From NCBI GenBank assembly GCA_003160755.1, contig QEXZ01000002.1, forward strand, positions 1 through 41,992: a stretch of DNA of 41,992 bases. The letters are read 5' to 3'. The notes under the pieces are model-generated. The model saw only the letters and a list, made by a program, of their open reading frames with translations, was not told the DNA's origin and did no database searches. Source of the DNA: Methanomicrobiales archaeon (lineage in GTDB: Archaea > Halobacteriota > Syntropharchaeia > Alkanophagales > Methanospirareceae). This document shows, one piece after another, positions 7,333 through 40,998 of this stretch; within the stretch, counting starts at the first letter, position 1; the number at the start of each line of letters is the position of its first letter. The position numbers and the translations under genes are program-made.

Positions 7333-8376
7333 ATGTTCCGTCCAAATTTTACTATTACTAACAAAATCCTCAACCACATAGCAGATATTTCTGCTTCTCG
7401 TGAGGTCATACTTAACGCACCGCTGCTCCCTAAATGGGAAGTCAAACTGAGAAAAGAAGCAATTCTAAAAATGACGCACCATTCTACGAGTATCGAAGGG
7501 AACAGACTCACAATGGAAGAGGTTAATAGGCTGCTCCGGGGTGAAGACATAGCGGCATGGGAAAAGGACAAAAAGGAAGTCCTGGGCTATGTGAAGGTTC
7601 TGGAATACATAGACAAGTTAGGAGAGAAGGGCGTTGATAAGATTACTGAAGACATAATCCTGGAAATACACAGGCTAAATACCCGGGGGATTCTTACGGA
7701 TTCAGAAGCTGGACACTATCGAAAAGTGGAGGTAGCGGTGGTTAACGGTCTGGGAAGAGTAACCTTTCAACCACCAAAAGCATCGCAAGTGCCCGCTTTA
7801 ATGCACGATTTTGTTGCATGGCTAAACAGTAAAGAAGCAAAAGAATTATACACGGTTTTGATGAGCGGGATTGCACATTACGAATTCGTTCGGATACACC
7901 CATTTGTAGATGGTAATGGCAGGACCGCGCGGGCACTGGCAACGTTGATTCTATACCTCCACGGTTTTGACACGAAACGTTTTTTTGCGTTGGATGATTA
8001 TTATAATGAAGAACGCAGCAGATACTACGCAGCTCTGCAAACCGTTGACCCACAAACAATAAATAGCACACAATGGTTAGAATATTTTATGGAAGGCGTC
8101 GCAGTAAGTATGGGTCGTGTGAAACAAGCGATTTTAGACCTGAGTCTGGATCGACTGCTAAAAGAAGAACGAGGACAAATATACTTAAACGACAGACAGA
8201 TGAAGATTCTCAAGTATCTTCAGACTAATCCGAGAATTACTATCAGTGAGATACAGAAAATGTTCGATAAAAAAGTTAGTAGGGACACTGCGAACCGAGA
8301 CCTCAAACCACTGTTAGAAAATAAATTGGTGAAAAGGATGGGTAAAGGGAGGGGGATATACTATGAACTGGCATAA
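7333..8376 (+). CDS. fic: Fic family protein (AMPylase-type) with C-terminal winged-helix domain
   Basis: Canonical Fic motif HPFVDGNGRTARA. The N-terminal TxxSxxIEGN region is HHSTSIEGN. The C-terminal part looks like a wHTH (ILKYLQTNPRITISEIQ). Confidence 0.9.
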   Translation: MFRPNFTITNKILNHIADISASREVILNAPLLPKWEVKLRKEAILKMTHHSTSIEGNRLTMEEVNRLLRGEDIAAWEKDKKEVLGYVKVLEYIDKLGEKGVDKITEDIILEIHRLNTRGILTDSEAGHYRKVEVAVVNGLGRVTFQPPKASQVPALMHDFVAWLNSKEAKELYTVLMSGIAHYEFVRIHPFVDGNGRTARALATLILYLHGFDTKRFFALDDYYNEERSRYYAALQTVDPQTINSTQWLEYFMEGVAVSMGRVKQAILDLSLDRLLKEERGQIYLNDRQMKILKYLQTNPRITISEIQKMFDKKVSRDTANRDLKPLLENKLVKRMGKGRGIYYELA

Positions 8377-8449: not shown

Positions 8450-8577
8450 AAAAAAATAAATTATAGACACTGATTAACACAGACAGATGATAAAAATCAA
8501 CAATCTTTAACTTAAATACGTCCGCGTAAATCCGCGTAAATCTGTGTCTTAAATAGAAGGAAGTTATTATACAACAA
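8450..8577 (-). mobile_element. MITE-like element, copy 3 (ends 2 nt before the cobA ATG)
   Basis: AAATAAATTATAGACACTGATTAACACAGACAGATG ... CCGCGTAAATCCGCGTAAATCTGTGTCTTAAATAGAAGGAAGTTATTATACAACAA. Confidence 0.7.
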
Positions 8578-8579
8578 AA

Positions 8580-9326
8580 ATGGGAAAAGTATATCTCGTG
8601 GGTGCAGGACCGGGGGACCCGGAACTGATAAGTTTGAAGGCATATCGGCTTATACAAGAAGCTGACGTGGTATTAGTTGACAATTTGGTTTTCGGCGTGA
8701 AGAAGCTGATTCCCGAAGGTAAGAAGGTCATTGACATCGGAAAAACGGCAAAGGAGCATAAACTTTCGCAGGATGGGATAAACATGCTCATGGTTGACCT
8801 ATCGGAACAATACGATAAGGTAGTGCGATTGAAAGGTGGAGACCCCTATATTTTCGGTAGAGGTGGCGAAGAGGCGGTGTTTCTCAGAGAGCATGGTGTT
8901 GATTTTGATGTGGTGCCCGGGATAACATCGGCGGTTGCCGCACCTGCTTATTTTTCCATTCCGCTTACATACCGCGGCATTTCTTCTGCTGTTACGGTAA
9001 TTACGGGACACGAAATGGAAGAGAAAGAAGAAATTGATAGCATCAACTGGGAAGCGATTGCGAATTTGACGGGCACGCTCGTCATTCTGATGGGTGTAGG
9101 AAATCTTGCTAAAAATGTAGACAACCTTTTGAAACATGGACTGCGTGCCGAAACGCCTGTTGCGGTGATTGAAAAAGGGTTTACTGAAGATGCGAGGATT
9201 GTGGTTGGAACGCTGGGGAACATCGTGGAAGTAGCAGCGAAAGAAAAAGTGAAGCCGCCGGCGGTGATTGTAGTTGGCGATGTGGTTAATGTGCGGGAGA
9301 AGTTGATTCTACACCCGGAGAAGTGA
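8580..9326 (+). CDS. cobA: uroporphyrinogen-III C-methyltransferase (SUMT)
   Basis: VYLVGAGPGDPELISLKA, VVRLKGGDPYIFGRGGEE, VPGITSAVAAPAY. Confidence 0.9.
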   Translation: MGKVYLVGAGPGDPELISLKAYRLIQEADVVLVDNLVFGVKKLIPEGKKVIDIGKTAKEHKLSQDGINMLMVDLSEQYDKVVRLKGGDPYIFGRGGEEAVFLREHGVDFDVVPGITSAVAAPAYFSIPLTYRGISSAVTVITGHEMEEKEEIDSINWEAIANLTGTLVILMGVGNLAKNVDNLLKHGLRAETPVAVIEKGFTEDARIVVGTLGNIVEVAAKEKVKPPAVIVVGDVVNVREKLILHPEK

Positions 9327-9734
9327 AAAAACATATTGCTCGAAGTTCCGATCGAAAGAAAAGGCATTTTTTACCCCAAACTCTTCCATCAAAGCAAAGC
9401 TCGTGCAATCCGTGAAACTATATCTTTTATCTTTATGCTTCTTAAATACTACCCATGCCTTCTCTTCGACTTCTGCGGAAATCCTCACAACATTCACTAT
9501 CCTAGATTTTCTTATCCGCTCACCAAAATCTATCGCTTGACTATGCCCCAACTGCATCATTATAAGCGTTAATGTTTCGTCAAGGATGTAATCAGAGGTG
9601 TAAAGCCTTCTAATTTGAAGCTTGCCATTCCTGATAGCTCGCCGGATCTTAATCGCCTCTTCATGGCTTGCATCATCCGAGTCATCCAAAGCGTAGAAAG
9701 CACTCGTATCCACAAAGCTAATAGAGATATTCAT
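9309..9734 (-). CDS. vapC: PIN-domain toxin VapC
   Basis: FVDTSAFYAL near the N-terminus, SFTDCTSFALM, and a C-terminal AFSFDRNF. Its 3' end overlaps the cobA 3' end by 18 nt. Confidence 0.85.
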   Translation of the reverse strand: MNISISFVDTSAFYALDDSDDASHEEAIKIRRAIRNGKLQIRRLYTSDYILDETLTLIMMQLGHSQAIDFGERIRKSRIVNVVRISAEVEEKAWVVFKKHKDKRYSFTDCTSFALMEEFGVKNAFSFDRNFEQYVFSLLRV

Positions 9735-11554: not shown

Positions 11555-12505
11555 ATGTGGGTGTATCATATGAGCAACACTATGCATTTAAGAAGGTTTA
11601 TAGAAAACAACCCTTATAATGACAAGGCCAAAAAAAGACTTATTGAAATTGGGTCTATCGAAGACCTAGAATGGTTGCACAACCGATATCCTTTCAATGA
11701 AAAGATAAAGGAAGGTCTCATACAGAAAAGTAACGCTCATGCATTAAGAAGGTTTATTAAAAACAACCCTTATAACGGCAAGGCCAAAAAAAGACTTATT
11801 GAAATTGGGTCTATCGAAGACCTAGAATGGTTGCACAACCGATATCCTTTCAATGAAGAGATAAAGGAAGGTCTCATACAGAAAAGTAACGCTCATGCAT
11901 TAAGAAGGTTTATAGAAAACAACCCTTATAACGGCAAGGCCAAAAAAAGACTTATTGAAATTGGGTCTATAGAAGACCTAGAATGGTTGCACAACCGATA
12001 TCCTTTCAATGAAAAGATAAAGGATGCTATAATTTCATATGAGCCAAATAAAAAAGTGATACCGCTAAAAATACAAAATAAGTCTTTAAGTAAAAATTTC
12101 GATGTTTTTATTTGCCATGCAAGCGAAGACAAAGAGTCTTTTGTTAAACCATTAGCGAAGGCTCTTAAAGAGGCGGGGGTTAAAGTGTGGTATGATGACT
12201 TTGTATTAGAGTGGGGAGATAGCTTAAGAGGTTCAATCGACAAAGGATTGGTAAATTCTAGATATGGTATCGTAATATTTTCTAAGGCTTTTTTAAACAA
12301 GAAAAAGACATGGACAAAGCATGAACTGGATGGATTGTTCGCTGAAGAGATTAAAGGTAAAAGGGTTATTTTGCCAATATGGCACGATATATCACGAGAT
12401 GATCTGTTAGAGTATAGTCCTTCATTTGCAGATAGACTAGCAAAAACATCTGATTCAATCGATGACATAGTTAACGACGTTAAGAATCTTCTTGGAAAAG
12501 AATAG
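11555..12505 (+). CDS. TIR-domain protein with three N-terminal 52-aa tandem repeats
   Basis: The C-terminal half carries FDVFICHASEDKESFVKPLAKALKEAGVKVWYDDFVLEWGDSLRGSIDKGLVNSRYGIVIFSKAFL..WTKHELDGL, a bacterial TIR_2-type signature. An AT-rich TATA-like box (taaattttatatta) lies about 25 nt upstream of the ATG. Confidence 0.85.
   Translation: MWVYHMSNTMHLRRFIENNPYNDKAKKRLIEIGSIEDLEWLHNRYPFNEKIKEGLIQKSNAHALRRFIKNNPYNGKAKKRLIEIGSIEDLEWLHNRYPFNEEIKEGLIQKSNAHALRRFIENNPYNGKAKKRLIEIGSIEDLEWLHNRYPFNEKIKDAIISYEPNKKVIPLKIQNKSLSKNFDVFICHASEDKESFVKPLAKALKEAGVKVWYDDFVLEWGDSLRGSIDKGLVNSRYGIVIFSKAFLNKKKTWTKHELDGLFAEEIKGKRVILPIWHDISRDDLLEYSPSFADRLAKTSDSIDDIVNDVKNLLGKE
11588..12024. repeat. 2.8 copies of a 156-bp near-identical in-frame tandem repeat inside the TIR gene
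   Basis: TTAAGAAGGTTTAT... recurs at 11588, 11744 and 11900 with an exact 156-nt offset. Only a handful of substitutions separate the copies. Confidence 0.9.
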
Positions 12506-14663: not shown

Positions 14664-14707
14664 TGGTAGAATAAAAATCCAAAAACCCAAAAGAAAGGTT
14701 TGTTTAG

Positions 14708-14755
14708 ACTGGGGCTCTGCCCCAGTAACCCTGCAAGCCCAGCAGGGGCTTATTT
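14708..14755 (+). repeat. GC-rich double-hairpin element, copy B
   Basis: ACTGGGGCTCTGCCCCAGTAACCCTGCAAGCCCAGCAGGGGCTTATTTT. Confidence 0.75.
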
Positions 14756-14774
14756 TGAGTTTAGTACTTAGTAT

Positions 14775-15047
14775 TTATTCTCCTGAAGTTGCATATATTT
14801 CATAGGGCATTATCCTCTTGTTCGCCTTCTTCTTCCCTCTTAACTTACTCACGAGGTCGGCGGCTTTCTCCTTCTTCTCCCGTTTCTTCAACCGTTCCAT
14901 CAGGTTCGTCATCTCTTTCTCCTTTCCCGCGCCGCCGTATTCCTTCTGTTCCGCTTTTAAGTACCCGTCGTCCTCATCTATTTCTTCTAGTTCCTCTTCT
15001 TCACCTTCCTCTTCCATTCCTTCAAAAACCAATGCGTTTTCGTCCAC
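14775..15047 (-). CDS. small, strongly charged (E/D- and K-rich) Pup/UBact-like candidate modifier ending in -SGE
   Basis: 80-90 aa, starting at GTG 15047 or ATG 15017. It has an acidic N-terminal half (EEEGEEEELEEIDEDDG), a Lys-rich C-terminal half, and the terminal ...PYEIYATSGE*. It sits directly downstream of the two PafA/Dop-like genes on the same strand. Confidence 0.55.
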   Translation of the reverse strand: MDENALVFEGMEEEGEEEELEEIDEDDGYLKAEQKEYGGAGKEKEMTNLMERLKKREKKEKAADLVSKLRGKKKANKRIMPYEIYATSGE

Positions 15048-15129
15048 CTTAACTCAACCCCCTAACACTTTTTTGCTTCGTAAAACCCTTTACTAAACTA
15101 TCTTCTCTTTATAATAAAATCTTCCACTA

Positions 15130-16710
15130 CTAAAAGATTACCTTATCGGGATACAACTCCTTTGCAGCGGATAGAACATCCTCTATTTGCTTTCCCTCCA
15201 CCATTTTCGTCCCTATCTCTTCCTTATTCAGCATAAACGGCTCATCTAGCATTATTTTCGCCTCATCAAGCACCATCGTCGACCAGCTGACACTTCGCAC
15301 ATGCGAGCCATACCTTCTCAACATTTCAACCTTGAAAAAGTCCCGTGTCTGTTCGGGTGCATTACGCAATGCGTATTTCACCCTATCCGATAAAGCCCCC
15401 CAATCAACTTCTGGCAATGCTCGCTTTGCGAATGCCCGCGACTCCTTCGGATTGTAAAGGCAACTGCCTTTCAGGCTGTCTTCGTCATCCTGAATGTCGT
15501 ACAGCGCACTTTCGTCCACCAGTGCGTATTGGTTACAGACGCTTATTCCTTCAGCAGCATTTTTTGGCTCATAATTCACAAGCAATGCCAATTTCGTCAC
15601 CCAATCAATCCCATCCACGTATTTTTCGAGCTGTCGCGCTTCTAAGTCCTCTATCACTCCTTTTAAGCCTTTTCTCCCTATTTCAGCCCATTTTTGGTCT
15701 TCTTTTTCCTCCCCCATCTCTTCATACATCGCCTCTATCCGTTCGTGATAAAACCGGAGAATGGAAACGGCATCCGTGGACTCGCCGCTCTTCAACTTTA
15801 ACTTCCACTCGCATTCTTGTGTATCTGCTGATATCTTTTTGAACGTTCTCACAGGGTCTTCTATCTCTGGAGCATCGTTCAGAAACCCCAATTCAAATGC
15901 ACTGATTACCATCGCCTGTGCAATGTCACGTAAGAAAATCGCGTATTCCGAACGAAGCGCTTCGTAATGTATGTCGTGCAGTCGCCAGTATTGACGTGCA
16001 GCATGCGGCTGGTCTCGCGTGTTCAGAATACCTCTGCCCGCTGTGGTCGAAAGAGAGGAGGGATGAACAACAAACATCGCTCTTGGCGAAATAACAAACT
16101 TCACTCCTTCTTTACCTATGGTATCTCCGGAAACAACGTCTCCTGCCCCGGTGAACAGTATTCTTGTAACCATCCAGGGTATTAGCGCCTTCTCTACACG
16201 ACTCCAATCCCTGCATACTGCCCTTTTTGTTAGTATATTCCCATGTGTAGCGTACGTATTGGTCTTTACTCTTTTCGCACCTGCACTGCCAGCACCAGCA
16301 CCAGCGACCGCACCAGAGCGACTGAAGAAATTCGCAACATTATTCTTATGGACGACAACTTTTTTCTTTAACGCCAGACTCGCCTCTTTTGACCCCATAA
16401 AAGCATATATCTCGGATGCTTTGTCGTATGCCACGGCATCAAAAGGGTTGTTGTAAGAAGGTGTTGATATTTCAAGATGCCCCATATCGTTATAAATCCG
16501 GCAGCCGTTTTCACCAAACGAAGAAGCTATTTTCGATTCATGCGCCTCTTGCGATACCTCGGTAGCGGTGTCCCAGTTCACATCGCGTGAAAATTTTCTT
16601 CGTTTTAAACCTTGAATCGCAGCGTTAACGAGCAAAGACGGGTTTAAACTTACTTTTATACTCAACGGATATTCCTGCTCTATCCCTCTTATCCTATTTT
16701 CCGTTTTCAT
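15130..16710 (-). CDS. PafA/Dop (Pup ligase/deamidase) family protein, paralog 2 (526 aa)
   Basis: RIRGIEQEYPL; NGCRIYNDMGHLEISTP; HKNNV...THGNI; LIPWMVTRILFTGAG; GILNTRDQPHA..YWRLHD; IDWVTKL; APEQTRDFF. These are collinear with the actinobacterial PafA/Dop signatures as I recall them. Confidence 0.8.
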   Translation of the reverse strand: MKTENRIRGIEQEYPLSIKVSLNPSLLVNAAIQGLKRRKFSRDVNWDTATEVSQEAHESKIASSFGENGCRIYNDMGHLEISTPSYNNPFDAVAYDKASEIYAFMGSKEASLALKKKVVVHKNNVANFFSRSGAVAGAGAGSAGAKRVKTNTYATHGNILTKRAVCRDWSRVEKALIPWMVTRILFTGAGDVVSGDTIGKEGVKFVISPRAMFVVHPSSLSTTAGRGILNTRDQPHAARQYWRLHDIHYEALRSEYAIFLRDIAQAMVISAFELGFLNDAPEIEDPVRTFKKISADTQECEWKLKLKSGESTDAVSILRFYHERIEAMYEEMGEEKEDQKWAEIGRKGLKGVIEDLEARQLEKYVDGIDWVTKLALLVNYEPKNAAEGISVCNQYALVDESALYDIQDDEDSLKGSCLYNPKESRAFAKRALPEVDWGALSDRVKYALRNAPEQTRDFFKVEMLRRYGSHVRSVSWSTMVLDEAKIMLDEPFMLNKEEIGTKMVEGKQIEDVLSAAKELYPDKVIF

Positions 16711-34582: not shown

Positions 34583-34716
34583 ACAAAATAAATTATAGAC
34601 ACAGATTAACACAGATGAAAAGAGCAACGCCGTTAGCCCAGCTCAACAAATAAAAGAAAAAATCCGTGTAAATCCGTGTCTTAAACAGAAGGAAGTTATA
34701 CTTTATATACAACAAG
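34583..34716 (-). mobile_element. MITE-like element, copy 4
   Basis: GACACAGATTAACACAGATG (34598-34617) and AAATCCGTGTAAATCCGTGTC (34660-34680) form imperfect inverted repeats. The element ends ...GAAGGAAGTTATACTTTATATACAACAAG. Confidence 0.7.
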
Positions 34717-40856: not shown

Positions 40857-40998
40857 CGTTGTATATAATGTATAGCTTCCGTATATTTAAGACACAGATT
40901 TACACTGATTTACGCAGATTTATTTACGTTGAACACTGTTAATTTTTATCATCTGTGTTAATCTGCGTTAATCTGTGTCAACAATTTAGTTTTTTTTT
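40857..40998 (+). mobile_element. MITE-like element, copy 5 (starts 20 nt from the OB-fold gene ATG)
   Basis: CGTTGTATATAATGTATAGCTTCCGTATATTTAAGACACAGATTTACACTGATTTACGCAGATTT...CATCTGTGTTAATCTGCGTTAATCTGTGTCAACAATTTAG. Confidence 0.7.

Follow-up and report, generated by a model that had tools for sequence, protein, structure and literature searches.

A candidate Pup-type modifier gene closing a conserved Pup_ligase cassette in ANME-1-group archaea

Pupylation is regarded as a bacterial invention. Its modifier Pup is an acidic protein, and in Actinobacteria the genes of the system run in the order mpa-dop-pup. In the foundational survey, Pup-type modifiers are described as proteins of 50-90 residues with a conserved C-terminal G[EQ], encoded beside a PafA-family gene and often beside two PafA paralogues; they have a bihelical conserved core and an extended C-terminal tail of 6-7 residues, are otherwise disordered, and proteasome subunit genes lie nearby in most lineages (PMC2588565). 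A terminal Gln of Pup is deamidated to the ligation-competent Glu (PMC2588565; PMC3511204). The survey names bacterial lineages only (PMC2588565), and a 2025 review is silent on the distribution of Pup beyond mycobacteria. Here we analysed a small gene at positions 14775..15047 (minus strand) of contig QEXZ01000002.1 (assembly GCA_003160755.1), which comes from a Methanomicrobiales archaeon placed in the Methanospirareceae; the whole stretch of 41,992 nucleotides is referred to as the window. The gene had been predicted, from the sequence alone, to encode an archaeal analogue of Pup or of the Pup-like modifier UBact.

When set beside the survey (PMC2588565), the product was found to have a length of 90 aa and a G[EQ] end, and its PafA-family neighbours are two tandem PF03136 genes, whereas neither the window nor any of the fetched cassettes was found to contain proteasome subunit genes. 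We consider the 90-aa protein to be a Pup-type protein modifier of ANME-1-group archaea, and thus an archaeal counterpart of Pup, with a rough probability of 0.68. The original prediction of an analogue is supported here by the synteny, the constrained tail, the Glu/Gln end and a parallel arrangement in Bathyarchaeia. The literature that was searched yielded no account of a Pup or UBact system in Archaea; most subscription journals lie outside this coverage and an earlier description is possible.

The small gene, its cassette and the Bathyarchaeia parallel

The small open reading frame (ORF) has a GTG start and is the last gene of a conserved cassette on the minus strand. In its 90-aa product, which has no Cys, 21 Glu and 5 Asp stand against 14 Lys and 4 Arg, and the net charge is -16 over residues 1-40 and +8 over residues 41-90. 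These counts agree with the composition that had been reported for it, namely 14 Lys, an acidic N-terminal half, a basic C-terminal half and a Ser-Gly-Glu end. The acidic N-terminal half (residues 1-40; 14928..15047, minus strand) is variable in sequence and is predicted to be disordered from the alignment, the AlphaFold2 model and the charge count. It is followed by a Lys/Arg-rich conserved helix (residues 41-77; 14817..14927, minus strand), predicted from the alignment and AlphaFold2, and by a nearly invariant C-terminal tail, IMPYEIYATSGE (14778..14813, minus strand), whose terminal Glu is the proposed conjugation residue and is replaced by Gln in rare orthologues.

A search of 5.8 billion proteins returned homologues of the small ORF in 70 clusters, most of them 80-100 aa long and all annotated as hypothetical; where a source is named, it is a metagenome-assembled genome of Methanophagales, Methanospirareceae, 'Methanosarcinales' or 'Methanomicrobia'. 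The family has a median length of 88 aa and a range of 52-124, in which truncated and over-extended gene calls are counted. In the alignment the N-terminal half was observed to be variable, and the C-terminal 48 residues are strongly kept with the consensus ...KEMxxIMERLKxREKKEKAADLVSKLxGKKKxNKKIMPYEIYATSGE, of which the part up to GKKKxNK belongs to the helix and the tail itself reads IMPYEIYAT(S/A)G(E/Q). Over 72 clusters the endings were YATSGE (64), YATAGE (4), YATSGQ (2) and truncated (2), which gives Glu in 68 and Gln in 2. The last codon at locus L040 is CAG and encodes Gln. The prediction had named conservation of the last residues and of the preceding segment as a check, together with a terminal residue that does not vary freely; the tail and the basic helix were found to be nearly invariant, and the last residue is Glu and now and then Gln.

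The nature of this conservation can be seen from the last 48 codons, of which 43 distinct nucleotide versions were compared. Over these codons the first, second and third positions had a diversity of 0.109, 0.086 and 0.366, with a ratio of nonsynonymous to synonymous polymorphism (pN/pS) of ~0.10, and it was 0.019, 0.004 and 0.473 over the last 12 codons, where the variation is almost wholly third-position. A chance ORF is therefore ruled out and the protein sequence of the tail is the conserved entity. The small ORF is a real gene, and its C-terminal part is under strong purifying selection.

The cassette has the conserved order AAA ATPase, Pup_ligase paralogue A (~585 aa), Pup_ligase paralogue B (~525-570 aa) and small ORF. 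This order was seen again in loci reached by way of distant homologues. Relatives of the 526-aa ligase (paralogue B of the window) are encoded at 61 genome loci, nearly all of them from ANME-1-group archaea, the nearest being 'ANME-1 cluster archaeon GoMg1' (locus L010), whose ligase is 96% identical to that of the window; the window thus belongs to an ANME-1 (Methanophagales) archaeon. A small ORF was found after the ligase in 46 of the 54 ANME-1-type loci with enough downstream sequence, while eight loci end too early; a small ORF conserved downstream of archaeal PafA/Dop-like genes is what the original prediction had asked to be looked for. A divergent AbrB/MazE-PhoU gene lies upstream of the cassette, and the genes beyond the small ORF differ among loci, which indicates that the unit ends at the small ORF. 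In addition, the cassette is kept on a more distant archaeal contig (L067), where paralogue A is only ~50% identical. Here the ORF in the last position encodes 73 aa, begins right after the stop codon of the ligase and ends in IMPYEIHAKSGE (C-terminus ...SIMPYEIHAKSGE).

A parallel system was observed in Bathyarchaeia-type loci, of which there are three from genomes and six from metagenomes (L062, L063, L065 and L069-L074), with ligases 36-38% identical to those of the window. Their cassette consists of a divergent Amidohydro_3 gene, two tandem Pup_ligase paralogues and then a basic peptide of 37-40 aa (9590-9703 in L065), with the consensus ...LFPSFKKR.LK....I.KEH..VVAPPG(E/Q). The last residue of this peptide is Glu in 5 of the 9 loci and Gln in 4 of the 9, and its start codon overlaps or closely trails the stop codon of the ligase; in L065 the letters GTGA are common to both. 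No similarity between the Bathyarchaeia peptide and the ANME-1 protein was detected with hhalign. Two unrelated peptides that occupy the same site and have a last residue of Glu or Gln amid fixed neighbours form the pattern described for Pup (PMC2588565; PMC3511204). A second archaeal lineage with an unrelated peptide in the same place and with a G(E/Q) end thus speaks for the predicted Pup-type analogue. The Bathyarchaeia peptide is apparently unannotated.

The shape predicted for the ANME-1 protein is in keeping with such a role. AlphaFold2, supplied with the family alignment, gave no globular fold (predicted template modelling score, pTM, of 0.26), with a predicted local distance difference test score (pLDDT) of <50 for residues 1-38 and of 75-82 for a helix at residues 41-77, which is followed by a break at 78-80 and a short helix at 81-88. 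Just two hydrophobic patches were noticed, both of them short (M46/L49/M50/L53 and L65/V66/L69). The model is consistent with a protein that, like Pup, is disordered over most of its length and would take on structure when bound, and it fits the lack of a hydrophobic core and the disorder that had been anticipated. An amphipathic segment had also been expected ahead of the tail, but the helical hydrophobic moment of residues 44-72 was not above that of shuffled sequences. A single amphipathic helix was accordingly dropped as a description of the small protein, its moment being at the level of the shuffles.

Signals for separate expression are found in the intergenic gap of 82 nt between the ligase gene and the small ORF (15048..15129, minus strand). 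This gap contains a TATA-like element, TTTTATTATAAAG, at 15107-15119 and a Shine-Dalgarno-like AGGGGGT at 15057-15063, which sits 10-16 nt ahead of the GTG start and includes a GGGGG run at 15058-15062 (10-15 nt ahead). The gap length and the GGGGG run are as first described, and only the TATA-like element had to be moved, having been placed at about 15100-15112. In orthologous loci the gap often carries motifs of the GGAAAA(T/G)ATAAATA type that resemble a B recognition element (BRE) and TATA box, and in the clade of the window AGGGGGTTGAG followed by GTG was seen again in many orthologous loci. The GTG start and a promoter specific to the small ORF both gain support from the recurrence of these motifs. 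The original prediction had left the start ambiguous between GTG 15047 and ATG 15017; on the recurring motifs, GTG 15047 is favoured. A separate promoter for the small ORF, which had likewise been suggested, appears plausible given the BRE/TATA-like motifs in the gaps of many loci. In L067 and in Bathyarchaeia the small gene instead abuts or overlaps the ligase gene. A scan for bacterial promoters around the small ORF gave no match, the model being a bacterial one that is not applicable to archaea. On the 3' side of the stop codon, hairpins followed by a T-rich run (14680..14762, minus strand; RNA fold of -33.2 kcal/mol, z -2.9), with terminator-like stems on the plus strand, form the probable end of the transcription unit.

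Ligase-family paralogues, ATPase and other genes of the window

Paralogue B (15130..16710, minus strand; 526 aa; PF03136 E=3e-66) lies directly upstream of the small ORF and is Dop-like, and paralogue A (16717..18474, minus strand; 585 aa; PF03136 E=2.8e-57) has a PafA-like loop spacing. The solved structures best matched by A and B are those of Dop and PafA, and both proteins are closer to the Dop structures than to PafA. For paralogue B, the match to Dop 4b0r in PDB has E=4e-36, and the NCBIfam models gave 199 bits for Dop versus 149 bits for PafA, the Dop equivalog cut-off being 492. In Dop the catalytic Asp is D94, and strand beta2 is preceded by the Dop-loop, which has 40-65 residues (PMC8599861). 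The Asp is proposed to serve as base or nucleophile in catalysis on the PafA/Dop fold (PMC3511204; PMC8599861). Paralogue B retains this Asp as Asp75 in RIYNDMGHLE with Dop-like spacing, and its segment before beta2 is ~17 residues shorter than in Acidothermus Dop. Most of the residues common to Dop and PafA are also kept, including the nucleotide-pocket His (Dop H231) and most of the Arg and His. HGNI is found in place of the HENY of Dop/PafA (Glu to Gly) and Ser in place of Dop E104, and both changes are kept in orthologues. Judging from its conserved residues, paralogue B is probably an active enzyme, and of the two it is the more canonical.

Paralogue A has Cys73 (codon 18256-18258) at the position where PafA has D57 and Dop has D94. 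In the structural alignment its RIYICTGGHLE is matched with RLYLDVGSHPE of 4b0t, and 4bjr has Asn for that Asp. The original prediction had spoken of ligase-like proteins; one of the two paralogues is without the catalytic Asp. Cys73 was found to be invariant in ~55 loci and kept in ~100 homologues down to 40% identity, and the Bathyarchaeia orthologue has His. Several other residues common to Dop and PafA are also missing from paralogue A (Dop N143, Y152, R221, N225, H231 and Y237). Paralogue A may be a Cys-dependent amidase/ligase variant or a non-catalytic partner. Because Asp is the proposed catalytic residue and A has Cys instead, which enzyme ligates and which cleaves is not readable from the sequence. 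In public annotation these enzymes are called 'Pup--protein ligase' or 'PafA2 family protein', and the small ORF is hypothetical only. We also noticed a subfamily related to paralogue A in locus L066 (7001-8488; ~490 aa), with the motif ICxSLPE and without the Asp and the His of HPE. This member is solitary: neither another paralogue nor an ATPase nor a small ORF ending in G(E/Q) is close to it, and it lies between glycoside-hydrolase-57 genes.

The AAA+ ATPase was called as an ORF at 18576-20423. Its orthologues have 543-549 aa, and its start is therefore probably the ATG at 20207, which gives a 543-aa form beginning with MEEMEGDY (18576..20207, minus strand; PF00004 E=2e-34). A profile of its N-domain matches the coiled-coil/oligonucleotide-binding (OB) region of PAN across the ...RSPPLxxGxV junction (6he8, E=3e-4; 2wg5, a PAN N-domain construct, E=4.5e-3), and Pfam gave no useful match to this domain. 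The search for N-domain homologues returned five fragments only, and an AlphaFold2 model built from five sequences (pLDDT 42) was not used. The NCBIfam model pup_AAA aligns with the ATPase over model positions 12 to 457 and stays below its cut-off, as does the PAN model. The C-terminal tail (18576-18600, minus strand, in the window) was observed to be conserved as E(E/D)TGMH(F/Y), which is ...EETGMHF in the window, with ...TGMHF in 41 loci, ...TGMHY in 9 and ...TGMHL in 1.

The gene divergent from the cassette (20229..21395, plus strand) encodes an AbrB/MazE-type DNA-binding domain fused to PhoU domains. The same neighbour is present in L001-L004 (341-344 aa), and translation of the window's copy probably begins at a codon downstream of 20229. 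This AbrB/MazE-PhoU protein may be the regulator of the cassette.

Some further observations concern the loci and the rest of the window. ANME-1-type cassettes with ligases 70-79% identical are filed under Nitrosotalea, Desulfobacteria and Bathyarchaeia bins (L024, L033 and L058), and these are probably mis-binned contigs rather than true occurrences in those groups. A short dispersed repeat was noticed at ~2460-2630, 8451-8483, 34585-34710 and 40885-40994 of the window and also at the ends of the ANME-1 contigs L009 and L036. In L036 it occupies the position expected for the small ORF; the repeat may be mobile or recombination-prone and may break assemblies. At 11555-12505 (plus strand) the window encodes a TIR-domain protein whose N-terminal half consists of three tandem 52-aa repeats (RRFIENNPYN.KAKKRLIEIGSIEDLEWLHNRYPFNE.IK...) and which may be a defence-type gene. 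A Fic-type protein with the motif HPFVDGNGRTAR at 7333-8376 (plus strand) and a protein of PIN/VapC-type look at 9309-9734 (minus strand) were recognised by reading the translations only.

Readings of the small protein

By analogy with Pup, a PafA/Dop-family carboxylate-amine ligase with the glutamine-synthetase fold would receive the helix and tail of the small protein in its groove, and the terminal Glu would thereby come to lie in the active site. With ATP, the carboxylate of this Glu would be turned into an acyl-phosphate and then coupled to an amine, most probably that of a target-protein lysine, to form an isopeptide bond. In orthologues with a terminal Gln, a Dop-like activity would have to deamidate this residue beforehand, and it would also cleave the conjugates. 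It seems reasonable to infer that the coiled-coil/OB AAA ATPase of the cassette would recognise tags and unfold the proteins that carry them. A hand-over to the 20S proteasome would be possible and is the weakest step of the proposal. We infer the conjugation itself, the roles of A and B and the proteasome link from the resemblance of the cassette to the Pup system.

A number of observations weigh against a Pup-type modifier. Eight loci with at least 500 nt beyond paralogue B, which include both Alkanophaga loci (L052 and L055), have no small ORF within the fetched stretch, and a scan of these stretches for any ORF ending in G(E/Q) gave no credible candidate. The AAA ATPase stands alone, as no 20S proteasome genes were found within the window or the fetched cassettes, and the Bathyarchaeia cassette is without an adjacent ATPase. 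The HbYX motif of archaeal proteasomal ATPases has the form [LVIMGAPFYW][FY]x at the C-terminal end (PMC3493965), and with His as its penultimate residue the tail of the cassette ATPase is not a canonical HbYX. The ending TGMH(F/Y) is not a canonical tail for docking on the proteasome. Furthermore, both enzymes are non-canonical, with paralogue A lacking the catalytic Asp and several other residues and paralogue B having Gly for the Glu of HENY.

The sequence of the small protein itself also gives no tie to the known modifiers. None of 36 family members matched TIGR03687, NF033388 or Pfam Pup at E<=10, where control sequences scored 74.7 bits on TIGR03687 (M. tuberculosis Pup) and 81.5 bits on NF033388 (UBact). 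The family profile found no Pup chain in PDB, and hhalign of the archaeal family gave probabilities of 0.3% for Pup and 0.4% for UBact, both represented by the control sequences. Searches of Pfam, NCBIfam and PDB with the small protein or its alignments returned chance-level matches only, and a profile of the conserved 50 residues found four matches among 1.84 billion representative proteins, all of which are family members; at this sensitivity nothing connects the family with Pup or UBact. Without detectable sequence similarity to Pup or UBact, the family is an analogue in context, size, disorder and C-terminus and not demonstrably a homologue of either. The claim that the tail is closer to UBact thus rests solely on the S-G-E ending, as no sequence relation to either modifier was found. 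In addition, the archaeal helix is strongly basic and Pup is acidic, and docking on the ligase must therefore differ between the two.

We hold it unlikely that the small protein is instead a carrier or precursor peptide in small-molecule chemistry, in which one of the Pup_ligase-family enzymes would attach the terminal Glu to the amine of a metabolite (amino acid, polyamine or cofactor precursor) and the other would release it, in the manner of LysW or of amidoligase-modified ribosomal peptides. LysW is a small acidic carrier that ends in Gly-Glu and is used through the gamma-carboxylate of this Glu, to which ATP-dependent ligases of the ATP-grasp type (LysX/ArgX) couple an amine; the carrier has a zinc-ribbon globular domain, and the genes lie in lysine/arginine biosynthesis operons of archaea and Thermus. 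Glutamine-synthetase-fold amidoligases use small amines as well as proteins, and Pup itself has been proposed to stem from peptides of ribosomal origin that served these ligases as substrates (PMC3511204, citing Iyer 2009). The Bathyarchaeia peptide, with 37-40 aa only, no adjoining ATPase and a conserved divergent amidohydrolase neighbour, would suit a carrier, and an amidohydrolase is also encoded two genes downstream of the small ORF in the window. However, no conserved biosynthetic genes follow the small ORF, the downstream genes varying by locus, and an unfoldase with a PAN-like coiled-coil/OB domain is always part of the ANME-1-type cassette, an indication that the substrate is a protein. 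The small protein also has no Cys or LysW-type zinc-ribbon, and it is not obvious what a carrier would need its long, acidic and disordered N-terminus for.

It is, in our estimate, rather improbable that the small protein is a non-covalent partner of the ligase-like proteins or of the ATPase, which would act as a regulator, pseudo-substrate, inhibitor or adaptor and use the tail as a docking peptide. Both active sites are non-canonical and A is without the Asp, and one or both members of the pair could lack catalytic activity; the conservation of the tail and helix would suit a binding epitope, and coupled or adjacent expression suits a stoichiometric partner. Nevertheless, the last residue alternates between Glu and Gln with fixed neighbours in two unrelated peptide families, which is expected of a substrate for deamidation and ligation and is hard to fit to a docking peptide. 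Paralogue B, for its part, retains the Asp, the nucleotide-pocket His and most of the conserved Arg and His.

Very little speaks for an unrelated basic protein (nucleic-acid-binding or ribosome-associated) merely beside the cassette, or for a spurious ORF: the Lys-rich helix is like nucleic-acid-binding segments and one database source names a homologue 'ribosomal protein L4', but a spurious ORF is excluded by the protein-level selection, no known family was matched, and the place after paralogue B is strict across lineages in which paralogue A is only ~50% identical, including the ORF that starts right after the ligase stop codon.

A Pup-type modifier is therefore the reading that we prefer for the ANME-1 family. 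A bolder proposition, which we regard as doubtful, is that archaea own Pup-like systems with at least two modifier families (~85 aa in ANME-1 and 37-40 aa in Bathyarchaeia) and that the invariant Cys of paralogue A, put in place of the catalytic Asp, forms a thioester with the terminal Glu of the tag. Acyl-phosphate chemistry as in Pup ligases and thioester chemistry as in ubiquitin enzymes would then be united on one glutamine-synthetase fold. What is new here relative to Pup and UBact is the modifier families, which are unrelated to both, the archaeal host domain and the Cys-for-Asp paralogue; the enzymology would be the same as that of Pup. An archaeal system of this kind, if true, would be a second and mechanistically unrelated tagging route beside the beta-grasp SAMP/Urm1/ubiquitin-like one. 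It would also reopen the origin of PafA/Dop-type tagging and the number of times that tags were invented. All that the archaeal modifiers have in common with Pup and UBact is the G(E/Q) end. Neither of the hosts, ANME-1 methane oxidisers and Bathyarchaeia, has been cultured; both are of environmental importance, and such a system would bear on their little-known protein turnover. Furthermore, the replacement of Asp by Cys in one paralogue amounts to a natural experiment on how the PafA/Dop fold achieves catalysis, and the whole cassette, having four genes, is open to reconstitution in E. coli.

Comparison with known tags and carriers

SAMPs, Urm1 and ubiquitin-like proteins are described as archaeal tags that become attached to lysines and in some cases have a link to the proteasome (PMC4569737, PMC2948915). 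The proposed modifier would share with them the standing of an archaeal protein tag. These proteins have a beta-grasp fold and a Gly-Gly end and are activated by E1-type adenylation and a thioester, whereas the protein studied here has no predicted fold, a G-E end and PafA/Dop-type ligases as its neighbours. With LysW it shares a small size and the G-E end. It differs from LysW in having no Cys or zinc-ribbon, in its neighbours, which are of the glutamine-synthetase-fold PF03136 family, and in that no conserved biosynthetic genes lie nearby.

UBact is known from several Gram-negative phyla (NF033388), and its C-terminal motif is R-(S/T)-G-(E/Q) after a basic stretch. Like the archaeal protein, it is a small Pup-like protein encoded beside PafA/Dop homologues, and the archaeal ...ATSGE has the S-G-E end. 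The archaeal tail is A-T-S-G-E, with Thr at the position where UBact has Arg, and the two also differ in length, in the acidic N-terminal half, in the archaeal host and in that the archaeal cluster is without proteasome genes.

A close parallel is the Pup/PafA/Dop/Mpa-ARC system of Actinobacteria. The archaeal protein differs from Pup in its tail, which is T-S-G-E as against G-G-E/Q, in its basic as against acidic helix and in its archaeal host. The archaeal cluster differs from that of Pup in having no 20S genes, in the Cys that replaces Asp in one paralogue and in the tail of its ATPase, which is neither HbYX nor GQYL-like. Both modifiers are small and mostly disordered, with a helical C-terminal half, a short tail and a G-E or G-Q end. 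Each is encoded beside a PafA/Dop-family gene, with two paralogues and a coiled-coil/OB AAA ATPase in the cluster, and the archaeal order of ATPase, Dop-like gene and small gene mirrors the mpa-dop-pup order.

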